Below, piece after piece: positions 27,884 through 37,985 of a DNA stretch of 64,000 nt (position 1 is the first letter of the stretch; each line of letters begins with the position of its first letter). The translations under genes were made by a program, and so were the position numbers. The notes under the pieces are model-generated. The model did not search any database and was not told where the DNA came from. It saw only the letters and a list, made by a program, of their open reading frames with translations. Location of the stretch: the NCBI GenBank assembly GCA_004022145.1, contig RCNU01000012.1, one strand, 5' to 3'. This stretch comes from Paecilomyces variotii. Lineage: Eukaryota.

Positions 27884-28532
27884 TTAGACAGGAGGCAGCA
27901 ACATCGCCATAGCGCCAGTTTTCTCTTCAGGTCTGCGGTTTTCGTCATCTCGGGGAGTAGAAGAACACGCAGCTAGGGTCTGACCATTCGGACGGCCCCA
28001 AATTCGTGGCGTGGATGTCGCGTCTGAGTATCCTGGAGGGTCCGCGCGCTCCAGGGATCTAGACGTATTATCTGATATGTCAGAAAGGCTACCGCTGCCG
28101 TCTAGGCTTCCAGGATTCGGTAGACCAATCCTCCGAGGACGGAAGACGTCTTCCTCTTCATCGTTCTCTGCATCTACCTCTGCTTCTGTATCGTCCTGAC
28201 CGATAGATCTGTCCCGACGTTCACAGGTTATCTGTATCGGGACCCTCAGCGAGCTGCTTGGGGCGATGAGGTTTGCGTTCGGGGTGTAATACGACACGCA
28301 GAGGTCAAGTGCGTAGGTGCGCGAGATTAGGCATGAATGGAACGTCGGTACAAAAGACTTGGATTTCGGAAGCGTTATAGGGACAAGAATCGAGGCGGTA
28401 TAGAAGGTCTTGCTGGAACATGAGGCCGATGGCCCCGTCAGGGATTCCGTAGATGAAGCAGATTGCGTGGAGACTCGACGGGGCATGTTGGCATCGTTTC
28501 CGTTGCAATGTTTCTCCCATTGAACGGAGGCT
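27884..28532 (-). pseudogene. 3' part of an alpha-arrestin gene separated by a transposon insertion; carries the PPGY motif
   Basis: FYTASILVPITLP, FVPTFHSCLISRTYALDL and PPGY. Joins in frame to the 5' part when the element is removed (..RCIAS|VQWEKH..). Confidence 0.88.
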
Positions 28533-28552
28533 TTATCTCAGCAAGCTCAGAC
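28533..28552 (+). repeat. left terminal inverted repeat (extends to 24 bp with 1 mismatch)
   Basis: ttatctcagcaagctcagac is the reverse complement of 36872-36891. Confidence 0.95.
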
Positions 28553-28999
28553 CCTCTAGCGAGGTGCCCCCCCTGCGGGTGGGCTTTTCACTGCAACGGC
28601 CTGTATAAGTATATGTACTAAAGAACTGAGCTAATAATATAGCATAAAAGCGACCTACTAACTTTTGGACCAATAGCAGACCGCGCAGTAAAAAACCTCA
28701 TAGAGAATTTAAGAATAAATAATTGCGTTTTATAAGGGTTATTTAATTATTCCTATACAAAAATTAAGCATTAATCTTCAACTTAATATTTTATACCCTA
28801 AATTACCTCTTTTTAGGTTAAAAATAGGCTTAATTAATTTATCTTAATCTCCTACTTCTCTAGCAGTTAATATAGAGCCCTAATCTTATATAAAAATCCT
28901 ATAAGAGCGGTATTTATAACTGCTACTATCTGACGTATCTTTAAATTACTTATTCTCACCTTCTATAAGGCTTACCTTACTAAACAACTTTATAATTAA

Positions 29000-31600
29000 T
29001 AGGGATAAACTCAGGGAGAGCTATAATAAGATAGAGGATAATAATATTAATATATTTAAAATAGATAACCTGGATAAACAGTTAATATTCTAGATTCAGC
29101 AGAGATTAGAAAACTTCGCCAAATATCTATATTAATCTTATTAGAGCTTTAAACAGCTTATATATATATGAATTATATATTCTTTAGAGATCTAGCATTA
29201 TCACTACTGCACTTATAAATAAAGATATTATGCCTAGAAAGAGATATTAAAAGAAATACTATAGGTTATTAATTATTATAACTTAGCTTTAATAGCTAAA
29301 GCAAAGCTTAATAAGCTAGTTAAACAACTATATTTTAGGAAATTTAATCATATTATTCCGTTAAAGGATATTAACTTTAATACTGCCTTTAATACTGTTT
29401 AGAATACTGCACCTAGACTGCATATATTTCTCTATAATCTACTAAGAAATTACTATGCCTATTAGATAAGTTATACTAGCTAGTATAATAAGAAAAGTCT
29501 TTAACAATAGCTATTTATTATTATCAATATAATCTATTATTTTTACTATATAAAATAGTCCAACTACTTATCTTTAATTCTTAATGCCTACCTAATAGGC
29601 TTAAGAGTAAAGTATTAAGTTATAGAGACTTTATCGGGTCTTAGATTATACTATAATTATATATAGGGGAATCGCTTAATAAAATAGATAGTAGACTATA
29701 AGAAGATAGCTTAATTTCTATTATAATATTTTATATCCTAATAATATTATACTTTTATAAACTATCTTTTACTCCTTAGTTCTCCTATAAAGACCTCAGA
29801 ACTCCTAGATAATTTAAGAGGCTAACCTTAGTTATAATTATAACTGCTAAATTTAGGAAAGAACCTATAGAGTATTATAGTCTATAATAATATAAATTTT
29901 AAGGAAATAATATATAATAAAATCCTTAGATATAAAGCTATAATGCGCGCAGTTATAATAACAGCAATTATATTATATCTTAATATCTTAGCATTAGGCC
30001 TATCGCAGGATATATATAATCTAATTATTTCTCTTAATTTCTATAAGATTATTAACTCCCTAATAATATATAGGAATAATAATGGCATAGGAAAGCAGAT
30101 ATTTATCTTTCTTATATTAAACATAATTATAAAGATACATTTATCTTTATTTAAAAGTATATTTAAATCTGCTAATTCGGCAATACCCTCTATATTAAAA
30201 CTAGATCGCCTTACTCTAAACTAAATGTAGTTTTAGCAGTTTAGGGCAATATTTAAAGATAAAGGAACTATTACTAGGACCTATAATATTTATAATAATA
30301 TCTTTTTTTAACAGTTATATCTGCATGCTTCTTAAGAACTAGGAAAGCCTAATAACTTCAATTTGCGCCTTTAATTTGTTTATAGCGATCAGCTTACTAT
30401 AGAGCGTATTTAAGCTATATAGAATAAGTAATTACGCGCTAAATTACCTTACAATTAAAGGTAGTAGCTTCTCAGAGTTCTTACATAATTCTATATTTAA
30501 TTAAACTTATTAAATACAATAGTATAGACGCATTTTATACCTATAAAGTCTGGTTAAGAAGCATATTATTATATTAAGTCTGATATTTCTATATAGGGAC
30601 GCAGCTAAATAAATCTAAATAGCCCCAAATATTATTAATTAGAACTAATTATTTTATAAAGCTTTATAACTTAAGTCTTAGCTCTATTTTATTACTTAAT
30701 ATAGCGCAGAGAATATTTAATAATTACTAATAATAACTCTCTTAAAAGACAGCAAGAATATAATTAAGTTATTGGCACTTTAGCAACTATAGATTACCTA
30801 TAGTTTATTAAAAATATTTAACTTATAGCATTTATACTTAATACCTAGGAAGAGATTAACCCCTATATAAGAGAACCTATCTAGGATATTAGATTCTGTT
30901 CTATATATCGGCTCTTGCAGGAAATAGAATTATTTCTTACTATCTGGCATACTATTAAATATAGTAATATTAGGCTTTTTTATTATTTAGTTAATCCACT
31001 AATTATCTATTTTTTAGCGTATCTTAATATAACTATAGTAATAAAATACTATACTATTAATAGAATCTATCTTTAGTTAATAACCCGGAGCTATAATATA
31101 CTATTCTAGTGTTAGGTCTTATTAATTAGTAAGGTAAGCTAGCTTATTTTAAAGCTATTGACCTTAGTCTTAAGTATCTTAATATAAACTATAAAATAGA
31201 AATAAAGGCCTACCGGAATTCTATATATAATATAGATATTAGCTTTAACTAGGTTTACTTAATAAATATCTAGATATAGGGTCTATAAGAAAAGCTGGAG
31301 TCTATATTCGGTTAATATATGCTTAATTTATATATTATAATATCTACATTAGATAAGATATTCTTACTGGCTTAAAATCTATTAATTAGTAACCTTGCCA
31401 AACTAAGAGACTTTAAATATTTCCTTAATTTCTCAGCTTTATTTAACTCAGAAAATATATTATAGATTAGAATAGAATAACTTGCTAAAAAAGTTAATTA
31501 GTTTAATAATAGCTATATCTATTATACTAAGATAATTGCTAATATATAGTCTATCGATAAGAATAGAATTAAGCATAATATCTATAATTATACTACTATT
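29000..31600 (+). pseudogene. RIP-degraded Academ/DUF6589-type DDE transposase (boundaries approximate)
   Basis: Observed -> transition-reverted: YNNINFKE->YDN.NFKE (~29883); FKDKGTI->FEDEGTI (~30253); YSDQLT->HGDQLT (30381); IKYSNIRL->IKHGDIGL (~30954); NPEL*YTILVLGLIN->PELQHAILASGLVN; FKAIDLSLKYLN->FKAIDL.LEHLN (~31150-31180). Family assignment is from memory of these motifs. Confidence 0.75.
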
Positions 31601-31738
31601 ATTAATAAATGCTATAATAGTATCCTTATTAATAATATAGCTTTAAATATTTAATATTAGAGGAGTATATAACCTACTAATAATTTGTTAACTCCTTATA
31701 AGACTTAGACTAATAAGAGAGTTGACACATAATAAAAT

Positions 31739-31852
31739 ATATAATCCCTTTACTCCCTTAAACTCCTAAGCTAATATTAAGAGGTTTAATATAAAGCATA
31801 TAATCTCTTTACTACCTTAAATTCCTGACTTAATAGCAAGAGGTTTAGTATA
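31739..31852. repeat. about 59-bp tandem duplication inside the transposon
   Basis: atataatc(c/t)ctttact...aagaggttta(a/g)tata at 31739 and 31798. Confidence 0.75.
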
Positions 31853-32092
31853 TATTATTAGCTGGCTAGGGAGCTCTATAATCTTAGTTAATATAAGGTA
31901 AAGTATAATATAAGAGGGTCTATATTAGCTACTATAATAAACTAATTATATCTCTATTTAGCTACGCTTTAGATTAGCTCTAGATTATATTACCCGAGTA
32001 CTATTATATAGAGGTATAGAATCCAATTTTAGCATCCTCCCTTCTCTTACTTATTAATATTAACTTAGCCTAATAAATATAGAATATTAGCC

Positions 32093-32330
32093 AATACTTG
32101 CAGTTGGGCCCTTCTAAGATATCTTAAAGCATTCGGCTATATAGCTTATTAGTTATTAAGGACCTAGTTAAAGCTTACCTATAAAGCAGAGCAACTAATA
32201 TAAAGATTATTATATCTCTAATTAATACTTACAGTTAGGCTCTTTTAAGATACCTTAAAATATTCGGCTATACAGCCTATTAATTATTAAGGACCTAGTT
32301 AAAGCTTATCTATAAAGTAGAGTAATTAGC
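32093..32330. repeat. tandem duplication with 131-bp period inside the transposon
   Basis: Two copies of about 105 nt starting at 32093 and 32224. All differences are transitions. Confidence 0.88.
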
Positions 32331-33999
32331 AGATAAAGCATACCTAATATAAATTAAATATTAATACCTATTAAACTATAATAGCACTGCTACTAGCTCT
32401 AGGAGAAGGACCCCCTTTTAGTAATAAAATCTGAGGAGGAGGCGATAGCGGTAAGGGAGCCTATTTATATTATTTGCTTATATTATAGCCCTTAATATAA
32501 GCAGCTAAGCAGTAATAAGTATAGGTATTTCCCGGCTTATATACCTGCTAGGCACCTTTTATAGAATAAATCTAATACTTCTTATTATAGAGCTAATAGG
32601 CTATATACCTATCCTCCCTAAAGAATTATTTACCTAACTTAGTCTTTATAATATAGCTAATATAGCCAATATTATACTATTTATTAGGGTTAAGATATTT
32701 TAAGTCCTCCTGCCTGAAAGACTACTATTTCCTAATAATTATAGGAGTATATGCCTCTATTATCTTATCTTTAGGGGTCTATACCTAGGGTAAATATAGC
32801 TAATTAGCTATTTAAGACTAATTATACTATTTTTATATAAGACTAAGAGCAGGTATAGTAATACCTATTAAAGGCGGGTTCGCGATAATAAGAGTTATAG
32901 GCATTAGGGATGGAGTTCTATTATAAAGGTATTAATATTTACTCTCTCCTAATAGCACTATTATTTACAGAGATATTTCTAAATCTTCGCTTAAAATAGG
33001 CCCGGCAAAATTATTATTATTATTATTATTATAGTCTGTTTTAGCTATAAAAAATAAACTAAAAACCTATAGCGGGCTCTCTAGCAGCGGCGGGAGGGGT
33101 ATAGGCGGTAATAGACTTAAAGATAGGGGAGGGCTAAATTATATATTTAGTTATTTTAATCTAACTCTGCTAATCTGCTATTATTTCTATTAACTAGCAA
33201 GGATAAAGAGGCGGGGAGGAGCTAAATATTAGATATATTAGTCTTATTTAATAATACTTAGAGCTAGTATATTATATAGGGGAGGGCAAGGCTCTGCTTT
33301 AAACTAGAGAGCACCTTTTAATATTACTATAGCTGTAGCGATTATATCTATCTTATTAAGAGAGATAATAGCAGAGTGCCTAAGCACCTAGATTATAAAA
33401 AGGCGGGCTATCTTAAAGTTTATTATTTTAGAGAAAAAAAGGAGGAGTTAAGAATATATAGGTCTATTTACTTCTACTTAAATAAAGCTAATATCTAATA
33501 AATCTATTGTATTATACTATTTACAAATATATCCTTATTAGCTAAAGAGAACTAAGGAGCTACCAGGAGTAAATAGATATTCTCAGGATAATTTAGAAGT
33601 TTTTAGGATAATTTAGAAGATAGCATAAGTTCGGATATATTATAGTAAGACTCCCTCTACCCTAATATCTTTGACATTACTCTTCTAATATAGAAAAGTT
33701 CTCCCTCCTAACCGCTATTAGAGTCCTAATTCTTTTACTTTTTATTATAGGCGTCTATATAAGCCTTTTATTAGGACTTTGTTTCTATAAAGGTTATTAC
33801 TTAACTAAAGTCTCTAATATTTAAATACCCCGTCTCTTTCGCGAAGGAGTCCTCTAAGGAGATAATTATTTAACCTATATATTAACTACCTCTTCTATTA
33901 ACCTATTCAGTAAGCTATTTAGTCCGCCTAGTCTATATAGCTTAGAAGGCGTATTCTATAATAATATTATTAGTATCTAAACTAGTAAGCCGGGGATTA

Positions 34000-36300
34000 A
34001 ACTTTTAGCTTATAATTTTCTAGCTGCAGTTAGCCTTACTAATTATATAGCAAGGGAATTATCCTTTTATTAAATAAACTTAGCATAATCTTCTTTTATA
34101 TTAAGGGAGATATCTAACTAATAAATATCCTTATGTTGCTGGCTTTAGTTCTAAATCTAAGCTAATTTCTTTATTAGATATAGCTTATTAACCTCCTAAA
34201 TTATATGCTATAACTGCTAGATTAAATTACTATTATACTGCTCTTTATACTGCTATTTTTAAACTAATAGAGCTTATATAGCAAGATTATTAAACTCTAT
34301 ATTAATAATTATTACCTTTAAGCTATATAAAGCTATAAGTTACTATTAGCATTCTTAGCTTATAAAAGTAGTAGATATTATAGGGAAATATTGCTCTTAG
34401 CGAGTATATATTAACTTTGCTTATAAAGTAGCCTATTAATTAAGCAATTTTAGTATAATACTAGCGCAACTTCCCTTATATAGTTTTTATATAGGTCTCT
34501 CCTCTAAAGGAGGTATAGTAGAGATAAGGATCTATAATAGATTATATCTACTATAGCAAGCTTCTGCTAGTATAGGAGATATATTAATATATAGGGATAG
34601 TCTATTCTCGCCCAGGTAAGATAAGAATGCTTTTTAATAATAAGGCCTATTAATAATTTGCTTCTAATAATCTGGGAGTTTAGATTAATATTCTATCTCT
34701 TTTTAATTCTAATATCTCTTTTTAGATATAGGTTCTTAGCTTCTTATAGAGACTAATAATAAGATGCTTTTAGTATTATTAATATCTCCTAGTATAATTA
34801 ACTTAGATAGCTGAGTATATTAAGACTATAGCTTTAAAGTCTAAGAAGCTATAGAAGCTAATATCTGTTTCCTAGATCTATTAATACCCTCTAAATTAAA
34901 TGCCTAATATAGAAGCATAATATAGCCTTTATTTGTTTAATTTTTTCTACGGCTACTATATCCTATTTGCTGCTAGATATTACAGATATCTAAATTAATT
35001 AAGAACTTCCAGTTAATAATATGCTTAATATTAAGTATATTAATTCTTATTCTAAGAGCGGTTATTGCTATTATAATATATATTTTTAATAAAGCAGATT
35101 TAAATTTGTTAAAGCGGATTCTCTAGTTATAAGATAAAACATATAATATAAAGGTTTGGATTACTATATTAACTAAATATAGACTATTTTTTATCCTGGA
35201 ATACTAATAATCTAATGCTAATAATATAGTCTTTATTAAAAGTATTTAATAAAGATATTCTGCTGCTATTTTAATCTTCTAAATATTATCTATAAAGATA
35301 ATTATTTTTGGTATATGTTCAGGTGTTATTTTATTGTTTTTGACAGCAGTATTTAAGAGAAAGTATAATGCTTTAAAGGAAGATAGCTTCTTATATAGAA
35401 TAGGTAAGATATAAATAAATATATCTTTCTAGTTAACTGAGGTCTAAATAACTTTTATTTAATAGGGTTAATCTCTAATAACTTAAAAGCTAGCTCTTTA
35501 AATAATTTCTTTCTCTCTATCTTCAGTAAGTATTGCGGAATAGCTAAATTAAATAATATCCTATCTTAGGATTAACTGTAATTTGCCTAGCATAGTAAAT
35601 TTAAGCTAAAATATCTCCTATTATACAATTAGATAGCATTTATTAATTATTATAAAACCGATTATTATTTATATCTCTAGTTTTAATAATATATCTAGAA
35701 AGACCTTCGATATAGCTTATTTAGGACTTAAAAGTATATGCATATATATATTAGCTTAGATATTTTAAATAAGATTATAATATTATTATTTAGTCTCACT
35801 ATTAATAATATATAGCTTTATCCCCTAGAGCCTCTTAATATCTTATATTTGCTCCTTAGTAAGCTTATTTAAGAGAGTTATTTAGAGAGTTATCTTCCCT
35901 GTTAAGATTAAAAATAAATAAAGGATAAGGCTTTTTTTAAACCTTATCTGCGCAATTAGAAGAGTATTGCTATAGCTATATATTAATTATTAAAGTATTT
36001 AGATCTACTCTAAATATAGAAAACAGCTAGACGCTAAATTTATTAATTAAAGTATGCGCTTTAAGCAAGCTTTAACTATAGCATATTACTGAGGAATATC
36101 CTCTTTATTAATAAATGCTTTAATTGCTAATAGTAAGTCTCTAAGCTTTATCTTTAATATATTAGATAATATTAAAGAGGCAGTATCTCTTGCTATTATT
36201 TAATAATACATATTCTTATAAAGCCTATGCTATCGGCTTTATTTATTATATTATCTCGCCATTCTTGCCCTATAGCTATGTGCTGGTATTTAAATATACC
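34000..36300 (-). pseudogene. RIP-degraded RecQ-like SF2 helicase (boundaries approximate)
   Basis: Motifs in the correct order. Motif I NTLLIAQIRFKKSLI->DTLLIARTGFGKSLI (~35968-35924); HILLSPK*->HILLSPEQ; motif II INKCYL->IDECHL (~35640); motif III YSAIL->CSATL (~35535); motif V AITALRIRINILNI->ATTALGMGIDIPDV (~35050); motif VI *QQIGYSSR->WQRIGRGGR (~34960). Confidence 0.85.
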
Positions 36301-36871
36301 TTATCTTTTAGCCTGAGAGCTTCTAAGATTTATAGGTATTAAAATATATTATACCCTAGCTTAGAGATTTGAAAATATTAAAAAAATAACCTTATCTATT
36401 AATCCAGGAGTTCTTAAGAGTTTCTAAAAGGTGAAAATATAGGGTTAGGTAATAGGTTTAAGTAATATTAAGCCTCTCTAGTTATATAGAGATTAGTAGT
36501 AAGCTTTTATAAAATCTGATCTGGCAACTTTAATAATATAGTTTAATATCAGCAAACTATTATAGCATCTAAATATATATATAAATTAAAAGAGAATTAC
36601 CAGCTAAATCTACAGCAGTTAACTTTAGTCAAATAACTTAATTATTAGTAGAGTTATTTGTTATTAAAGTTAGATAGTATTTTTAAAAAAGAGGGAAATT
36701 AGTAAGCTTTATTAATAAATTGCAACTATTTATTCTCAGATACTTACTAAAGAATTTTTCACCTTCCTATTTGGGTTTAGCGTATCCGCTCAAATATTAT
36801 TGGCTCAGGTTATTGAGCTAATTTGCACTAGTTTCTAAATAGTATAGTAGAAGCACTAATCTTTGGCGAGC

Positions 36872-36891
36872 GTCTGAGCTTGCTGAGATAA
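36872..36891 (-). repeat. right terminal inverted repeat
   Basis: gtctgagcttgctgagataa, followed directly by the TSD copy cggaggct (36892-36899). Left TSD copy at 28525-28532. Confidence 0.95.
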
Positions 36892-37985
36892 CGGAGGCTA
36901 TGCATCGTGAAGACAGCGGCATGGTTTCCGCATATACACCCCTGATATTGGTCCAGTAAGTGTTGGACGACCTGGATGGGAATTTATCCCACGGGATGAT
37001 ACTATAGAAGGTTGATGCTTTGATCTTCGTCCATAGTGTTCCCAATCTGGGAGGCTGTTCGTCTCCTACGGGGTCGAATCGAAGGTGTAGAGTTGCGACA
37101 GTACTTGCTGAGCAGGATGAACCGTTGCGGGTTGGAAAGTCACATTGTAGCGGTTTGGGTTGTGATGTTGCAATGACCAATCGACCATACTTCCCTCTCA
37201 GTAGGCCTTTCCTGACATCTCTTTCCTTCCGAAGACAATAATCATCGCAATCATCGGGAATGCTCAAAGGAGGCTGTTCATCGACTGCGGGTACGACGCG
37301 GACTTTCTTCGCAACTGATGCAAGGCTCGTTGAACGCCCGCCTTCGACCGACGGTTTTCTCGAAACCGATACCTTGATGACATATGATATTCTAGTCATT
37401 GCAGGCGCCATATCGTCCAGGAGACTAACTCCATCTCCTGCTAGCATGGGGTCTCCAAGACTTGGCGGCAATTGGGTGTGAGCATATCTAAGGTGGAGGT
37501 TATCCTTCGAATGGTCACAGGCCTGTGGAAGGAGGTGATCAGGCACGACGAAAGTAAATGGGAATCTGAAGGTGCAGCCGGCTTCGAAGATTCGTGGGTG
37601 CGGATACTCCGTCTGGCGGATGGGTTGTCGTAGCTTTAGAAATGCCTGATATGCATTCGATGTACGACCTGAACCTGCTAGGCTCGACGACCGTTCCACC
37701 GATGTTGTGGCCAGTCCTAGCATGCGGTTAGCCAAACAATTGAACTTGACTGATGTAAAAAGGAAGCCACATAACATTACCCTCGAATGTGATGTTTATG
37801 TCGTCAAATTGGATGTCATGTTCCGCAGTTACGGTCACTTCACCCTCGATCTTATCGCCAGTGGTATAGGAAGCGACGAAGCCATCTTTCTGATCGACCA
37901 AGTCAATTCCAACCTTTGGTCTAGATCTTTTCGTAAGTGACTCGAAAGTGCTTGTGCTTCGAGCGACGAAGGATGATGTGGACAT
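36892..37985 (-). pseudogene. 5' part of alpha-arrestin (arrestin-N/Bul1-like) gene. Reads into the transposon end and stops at 36818.
   Basis: SYTTGDKIEGEV, DINITFEG, FLKLRQPI, FPFTFVVP, LPPSLGDP, DDMAPAMTRISY, KGLLRGKYGRL and LHLRFDP..EQPPRLG. One intron at ~37730-37778. Confidence 0.88.

Follow-up and report, generated by a model that had tools for sequence, protein, structure and literature searches.

Academ is a superfamily of DNA transposons, and AcademH is its helicase-encoding lineage, reportedly described by Kojima in 2020 (Mob DNA 11:15); AcademX comprises the Academ elements with a fusion of transposase and XPG nuclease. In passages of the published literature, AcademH is presented as a source of DEAD/Helicase_C helicases, with a low copy number in Basidiomycota, Ascomycota and Mucoromycota (PMC10799480), and the target-site duplications (TSDs) are given as 9-10 bp for AcademH and 3-4 bp for AcademX (PMC10045372). 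Academ is described in part of another source as abundant in bivalves (PMC10294476), and a passage from 2017 states that the RNase H-like domain of Academ matched no Pfam family (PMC5751038). KolobokH and Helitrons are named as other helicase-carrying eukaryotic transposons in the passage on helicases (PMC10799480). The locus considered here lies in a stretch of 64,000 nucleotides (the whole of the DNA analysed, hereafter the window) from contig RCNU01000012.1 of Paecilomyces variotii (assembly GCA_004022145.1). This window is well supported as containing a full-length transposon bounded by terminal inverted repeats (TIRs) and killed by repeat-induced point mutation (RIP), carrying a DUF6589 transposase and, convergent with it, a RecQ-like superfamily 2 (SF2) helicase. 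We consider positions 28533-36891 to be, very probably, a dead copy of an autonomous cut-and-paste transposon of this DUF6589 plus RecQ-like-helicase type, most likely of the AcademH lineage of Academ. The element is a dead copy of a known type and not a new kind of transposon. Several outcomes had been named in advance as refuting the original prediction (a consensus matching another superfamily or neither domain, or a lack of other TIR-bounded copies), and none of them was encountered.

The element measures 8359 bp and is a complete DNA transposon, with TIRs at its ends and a copy of an 8-bp target duplication on either side. Its G+C content is 0.27, versus 0.47-0.49 in the flanks; along the window, G+C is 0.22-0.31 over 29001-37000 and 0.39-0.58 in the rest (about 50% overall). 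Five open reading frames (ORFs) of at least 60 amino acids overlap 28300-37100, and only one of these, at 29943-30224 (93 amino acids), lies wholly within the block. The left TIR (28533-28556, plus strand) begins TTATCTCAGCAAGCTCAG and is 24 nt long, with 96% complementarity to the right arm; the right TIR (36868-36891, minus strand), recognized from this complementarity and from a conserved terminal motif, ends CTGAGCTTGCTGAGATAA, and the outer 20 nt of the two arms match perfectly. The TSD, CGGAGGCT, is an 8-bp direct repeat at 28525-28532 on the left and 36892-36899 on the right, with no strand assigned, and is also documented by reads from an empty site in sequencing run X21 (see below). 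The original prediction, made from the letters of the sequence, had described an AT-rich block of about 8.4 kb with a single 93-residue ORF, perfect 20-bp TIRs and a flanking direct repeat, and all of these features are borne out.

The exact position of the ends was examined with the help of 66 related loci obtained by scanning metagenome contigs with a DUF6589 alignment. The terminal motif TTAYCTCAG-N(3-7)-CTCAG was found 22 times, distributed over 16 of these loci, and lies at the outer limits of the gene set; the termini read TTAYCTCAG...CTGAGRTAA. When the first two bases of the motif are left free, 23 of 27 terminal matches still begin with TT, and the next base outward is variable. Loci L010 and L025 carry copies of a single family, and their sequences part ways right after TAA. 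A longer flanking repeat of 10 bp, AACGGAGGCT, can be read in the window, but this requires counting the final AA of the element as target. Because the termini start with TT(A) and L010 and L025 diverge after TAA, the element is taken to end in ...GAGATAA, with the 8-bp CGGAGGCT as its TSD. The base in ninth position before the left end is an A in just 2 of 12 flanks, and the two additional matching bases at the window TSD are best read as a coincidence. A search for partner ends of the single TIR ends in 15 loci yielded only the known pair of L037 and one poor match. In another locus (L028:4589-4625), a right end, ...CTGAGGTAA, and a left end, TTACCTCAG..., are separated by 7 nt (TGGAACC); this pair could correspond to neighbouring insertions, or to a tandem or end-joined form.

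Heavy RIP had also been predicted, and the indices calculated across the boundaries agree with this. The TpA/ApT ratio is 1.38 within the element and 0.75-0.77 in the flanks, with a sharp change at the boundaries, and the (CpA+TpG)/(ApC+GpT) ratio is 0.59 within and 1.16-1.17 outside. The usual thresholds for RIP are TpA/ApT of at least 0.89 and (CpA+TpG)/(ApC+GpT) of no more than 1.03, and the element passes both. The observed/expected ratios in the element are 0.38 for CpA, 0.34 for TpG and 0.53 for CpG, and the differences between copies are almost all transitions. RIP has changed C to T and G to A in the element, for the most part at CpA and CpG sites, and has left each of its three genes riddled with stop codons. 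The remnants of these genes were followed by plain searches and by RIP-aware scoring, in which each codon is rated by the amino acids possible before C-to-T or G-to-A changes; the identities of 45-70% obtained 'after reversal' in such traces are inflated by free reversion and are not used as evidence.

The transposase gene occupies about 28914-31618 on the plus strand and was traced with Pfam, tblastn and RIP-aware scoring. Its first part (28914-31013) consists of an N-terminal region without a known family followed by DUF6589, and its C-terminal part (31007-31618, traced by tblastn and RIP-aware scoring) lies in another frame of the same strand, beyond a single-base frameshift near 31010; the two parts contain 53 and 16 in-frame stops, respectively. 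In the reads, other copies have an additional base at 31009-31015, which shows that not every copy has the frameshift. With stops read as X, Pfam DUF6589 (PF20231) is matched at about 30093-30719 in plus frame 1 with 43.5 bits (E 2.3e-11), above the gathering score of 27 bits, and a second DUF6589 fragment (13.8 bits) is found in another plus frame past the frameshift. In tblastn searches, protein P0064, which represents the N-terminal region, matches 28935-29708 (E 1.5e-36), protein P0002 matches 29871-31019 (E 1.8e-68), and residues 381-542 of P0002 match 31007-31477, one frame over. A word-indexed homologue search with the RIP-mutated transposase returned 2768 candidates, none of which scored. 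A HMMER scan of 1.84 billion representatives identified 190 transposase homologues at E ≤ 1e-3 (best 4.3e-49), and those with names are hypothetical proteins of Pezizomycotina (Microthyrium, Zymoseptoria, Elaphomyces, Ascosphaera and Sclerophora). All 39 homologues of at least 450 amino acids have DUF6589 as their only Pfam family. The consensus of 20 intact homologues contains YDN.NF, GDQ.T, WFH, GDIG and IDL.LEHLN; the plus-strand motifs on which the original prediction based its transposase are those of the family.

The helicase remnant (33659-36313, minus strand; core 34949-36016), traced by tblastn and RIP-aware scoring, comprises about 885 codons, all in one frame and interrupted by 84 stops. 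Aligned by RIP-aware scoring in six frames, E. coli RecQ scored 125.4 in one frame and 46-62 in the other five. The best-over-frames scores of 200 shuffled queries were 56.4 ± 6.2 (maximum 81.2), and the control queries gave no more than 50.5 for reversed RecQ and no more than 52.5 for seven unrelated E. coli proteins. Residues 27-329 of E. coli RecQ align to 36016-34949, from motif I through motif VI. In the window, the sequence is NKCY at motif II (DECH in an intact relative), SAI instead of SAT at motif III and QQIGYSSR at motif VI. A plain tblastn search, with no RIP model, aligned residues 94-689 of the helicase of related locus L003 with 36079-34361 (29% identity, E 5e-60), and plain Smith-Waterman alignment scored 338-511 in one frame and no more than 41 in the others. 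The RecQ motifs that the original prediction had read on the minus strand after reversion could, in principle, be an artefact of free T-to-C and A-to-G reversion in AT-rich DNA, with the transposase alone really present: reversion allows many degrees of freedom, and direct searches of the minus-strand read-through revealed no helicase (nothing in Pfam at E ≤ 1; nothing relevant at E ≤ 10 in a phmmer search of the PDB with the three minus frames). However, the shuffled, reversed and unrelated-protein controls reached no more than about 81, and the artefact is refuted by the plain tblastn and Smith-Waterman scores, which involve no reversion whatsoever, leaving it a vanishingly small probability.

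The intact relatives make the nature of this helicase clearer. Their helicase ORFs are 929-1068 amino acids long, and Pfam finds only DEAD and Helicase_C in the five intact partner helicases submitted to it. Among the PDB sequence matches of the L003 helicase, 37 of 42 belong to the RecQ family (WRN at 1.9e-20, RecQ, RECQ1/4/5 and BLM). The helicase core is most like those of RecQ-family proteins (E. coli RecQ and human WRN, RECQ1, RECQ5 and BLM), and motif II is of the DExH type (DECH). Pfam detects no C-terminal RecQ domain (zinc-binding, RQC or HRDC) in any of the five intact partners, and a tail of about 450 residues matches no family. In some related loci, the tblastn match to E. coli RecQ nevertheless reaches residues 391-408.

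The convergent pairing of transposase and helicase found in the window, which was the core of the original prediction, recurs among the relatives. A match to E. coli RecQ was obtained in 20 of the 66 related loci, always downstream from the transposase and on the opposite strand. When only loci with at least 3 kb of downstream sequence are considered, 12 of 18 carry the convergent helicase; of the remaining six, four are weak, fragmentary matches and two belong to a subfamily with the helicase at least 3.9 kb away. When all six frames of the intact relative L010 were scanned with Pfam, DUF6589, DEAD and Helicase_C appeared and nothing else. In locus L002 (3600-11200), 7.9 kb separate the transposase from the helicase, which is split into two ORFs; several ORFs without Pfam matches lie in between, an arrangement that may reflect a nested insertion.

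A third gene, overlooked in the original prediction, is present between the other two. In L003, a Cys-rich ORF of 239 amino acids (3789-3073, minus strand) sits between the transposase and helicase genes, and this ORF3 recurs in 10 loci, which belong to the subfamily most closely related to the window element. Its remnant in the window (32374-33192, minus strand) was recognized by both RIP-aware and plain matching to the L003 ORF, with a RIP-aware score of 273.9 versus 61.6 ± 6.6 for the null (maximum 85.2, n=200) and a plain score of 75 versus no more than 33 in the other frames. ORF3 has no confident family: Pfam gives sub-threshold matches only, to DUF3716 in two of eight sequences (13.3 and 16.9 bits) and to Zn_clus in two of eight, and its Atlas neighbours carry DUF3716 with scores of 0.83-0.86, which are leads only. 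The spacer between the ends of the transposase gene and ORF3 contains a 59-nt tandem pair (31732-31849, 81% alike) and a 105-nt direct pair (32093-32328, 87% alike, 131 nt apart).

The occurrence of the element in the species was followed in public reads bearing the same species label (runs X16, X18, X19 and X21). Contigs of X16, X18 and X19 contain the junctions between flank and TIR. In X21, by contrast, 41 raw reads link 28522 directly to 36890, and 10 letters at the join fit both sides, as expected of an empty site, and the insertion is therefore polymorphic within the species. The X21 reads nonetheless cover the whole element, mostly with 88-95% likeness, and 830 of the 877 places at which they differ from the window copy are transitions, an excess expected of copies mutated independently by RIP. 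Loose ends in these reads at 28530 (43 reads) and 36892 (63 reads) mark another insertion, flanked on both sides by CTGTAGCT, which constitutes a second 8-bp TSD; the duplication is, thus, 8 bp long in both of the insertions readable in the species. Further copies exist, and the element belongs to a multi-copy family in this species. Another 34 X21 reads follow the left end as far as 28565 and then continue into unrelated sequence, as do contigs of X16 and X19; other elements of the species may therefore share just the terminal 33 nt or so, and could be non-autonomous derivatives or members of a sister family. A join between 30953 and 34298 on opposite strands, present in 32 X21 reads, points to a rearranged copy elsewhere in the genome of the X21 strain.

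The window copy landed in an exon of a Bul1-like host gene. The transposon splits a minus-strand ORF into two parts, 27884-28522 and 36900-37777, with a weak Bul1_N match in the right flank (20.1 bits, below the cut-off of 28.7) and a weak Bul1_C match in the left flank (21.8 bits, below the cut-off of 24.2). When the element and one copy of the repeat are excised in silico, the ORF starting from the ATG at 37777 encodes 508 amino acids, versus 319 in its interrupted form. The host site is uninterrupted in X21 and carries the insertion in X16, X18 and X19.

Assignment of the element to AcademH relies on its likeness to published accounts of that lineage. Like AcademH, the element is TIR-bounded and several kb long, with a transposase and a separate SF2 (DEAD/Helicase_C) helicase and without XPG. 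The helicase lies inside the TIRs beside the transposase, and a partnership of this kind is the hallmark of AcademH in the passage describing it (PMC10799480). The taxonomic distribution of DUF6589 also fits: its clusters are most frequent in Mollusca, Basidiomycota and Mucoromycota, which are the groups in which Academ is abundant or present according to the passages available (PMC10294476, PMC5751038). AcademX presumably has a transposase of the same superfamily, but no XPG family is present in the six frames of the window, in those of L010 or in the 39 long homologues, and the TSD is 8 bp rather than the 3-4 bp mentioned for AcademX. The element shares with KolobokH and Helitrons the carriage of its own helicase, but it has DUF6589 instead of a Kolobok transposase or an HUH Rep, and a RecQ-like rather than a Pif1-like helicase. 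Several observations nevertheless weigh against the assignment to AcademH. The TSD measures 8 bp in two of two insertions, versus the 9-10 bp stated for AcademH in the passage concerned (PMC10045372), and no matching TSD of 8-10 bp was detected in L011 and L019, the sole metagenome elements with two flanks, although the contig ends at repeats may be chimeric in such data. No DUF6589 protein fused to XPG, a form that would link the domain to AcademX, was found among the 39 long homologues or in a search for longer proteins, and region 600-1000 of P0020 gave nine matches, every one of them DUF6589 only, without XPG. The structural matches to known transposases are also faint. An AlphaFold model of P0002 (predicted local distance difference test score 82.9), compared with the PDB, has P element and Transib transposases as its top three matches, with Hermes in ranks 6-7, but at E 0.039-0.33 and template-modelling scores of 0.2-0.3, with none at E ≤ 0.001. 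Candidate residues for an acidic triad (the aspartates of YDN and GDQ and the glutamate of LEHLN) are conserved in the 20 homologues. A DDE transposase with an RNase H-like fold is predicted for the DUF6589 protein, its DDE chemistry being putative.

The same observations might indicate that the element belongs to a lineage separate from the AcademH elements described, either a Pezizomycotina clade or a superfamily of its own, resembling AcademH only in the carriage of a helicase. Such a lineage, marked by the conserved TTAYCTCAG termini, would account for the 8-bp TSD, for the lack of a link to XPG and for the third, Cys-rich ORF, which is conserved in 10 loci and is a point of difference from AcademH. 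It would also be in keeping with the absence of a Pfam match for the Academ RNase H-like domain in the 2017 passage (PMC5751038) and with such literature on DUF6589 as was found, in which nothing ties DUF6589 to Academ or reads it as a transposon. The assertion in the original prediction that convergent genes within short TIRs define AcademH has no counterpart in the AcademH passages. Against a separate lineage, the TSD length comes from two insertions only, the published AcademH set may already include families of this type, and both the helicase partnership and the taxonomic spread of DUF6589 are those reported for AcademH and Academ. We regard a separate lineage as unlikely. A duplication of 8 bp is typical of hAT, P and Zisupton elements, and TTAA is the target of Kolobok. 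Together with the weak P element and Hermes fold matches, this could suggest a decayed element from some other superfamily that makes 8-bp TSDs (hAT, P, Zisupton/KDZ or MULE), or from KolobokH, but such an origin is very improbable: DUF6589 is the only family in the 39 long homologues, none of which has a hAT, MULE, KDZ or THAP family, the six frames of L010 contain only DUF6589, DEAD and Helicase_C, and the TSDs are not TTAA. Membership of AcademH is the reading we prefer. A bolder proposal, which we put forward tentatively and with more doubt than conviction, is that the DUF6589 elements of Pezizomycotina form a separate, undescribed branch beside AcademH, with DUF6589 as their transposase, and that one of them was recently active, is polymorphic between strains and knocked out a Bul1-like gene. 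The marks of such a branch may be TTAYCTCAG...CTGAGRTAA termini, 8-bp TSDs, a RecQ-like helicase and, in one subfamily, a Cys-rich gene.

In live copies, the DUF6589 protein would bind the TIRs, excise the element and integrate it with an 8-bp stagger, with two putative accessory factors of transposition, namely the RecQ-like helicase and the small protein rich in cysteine. The helicase and ORF3 probably serve transposition, because they lie within the TIRs in many families, and the helicase may unwind or remodel the transposon ends or repair intermediates. At the locus studied here, insertion duplicated 8 bp of target in an exon of the Bul1-like gene, RIP followed and the transposase gained its single-base frameshift. 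The window copy is now probably inert, save for splitting the host gene and forming an AT-rich island.

These results illustrate how RIP can conceal a whole three-gene transposon from ORF-based annotation, even though homology searches with intact relatives recover the element easily and a simple RIP-aware scoring recovers the helicase even when the query is the distantly related E. coli RecQ. The intact relatives, the conserved terminal motif and the polymorphic insertion in a host gene are by-products that can be used for population and functional work. For DUF6589, we propose a working annotation as a transposase travelling with a RecQ-like helicase. In part of a 2025 preprint, DUF6589 is listed among the domains enriched in pathogenic fungi, as possible novel virulence factors (preprint 10.1101/2025.10.24.684071); our findings suggest that this enrichment reflects transposon load.

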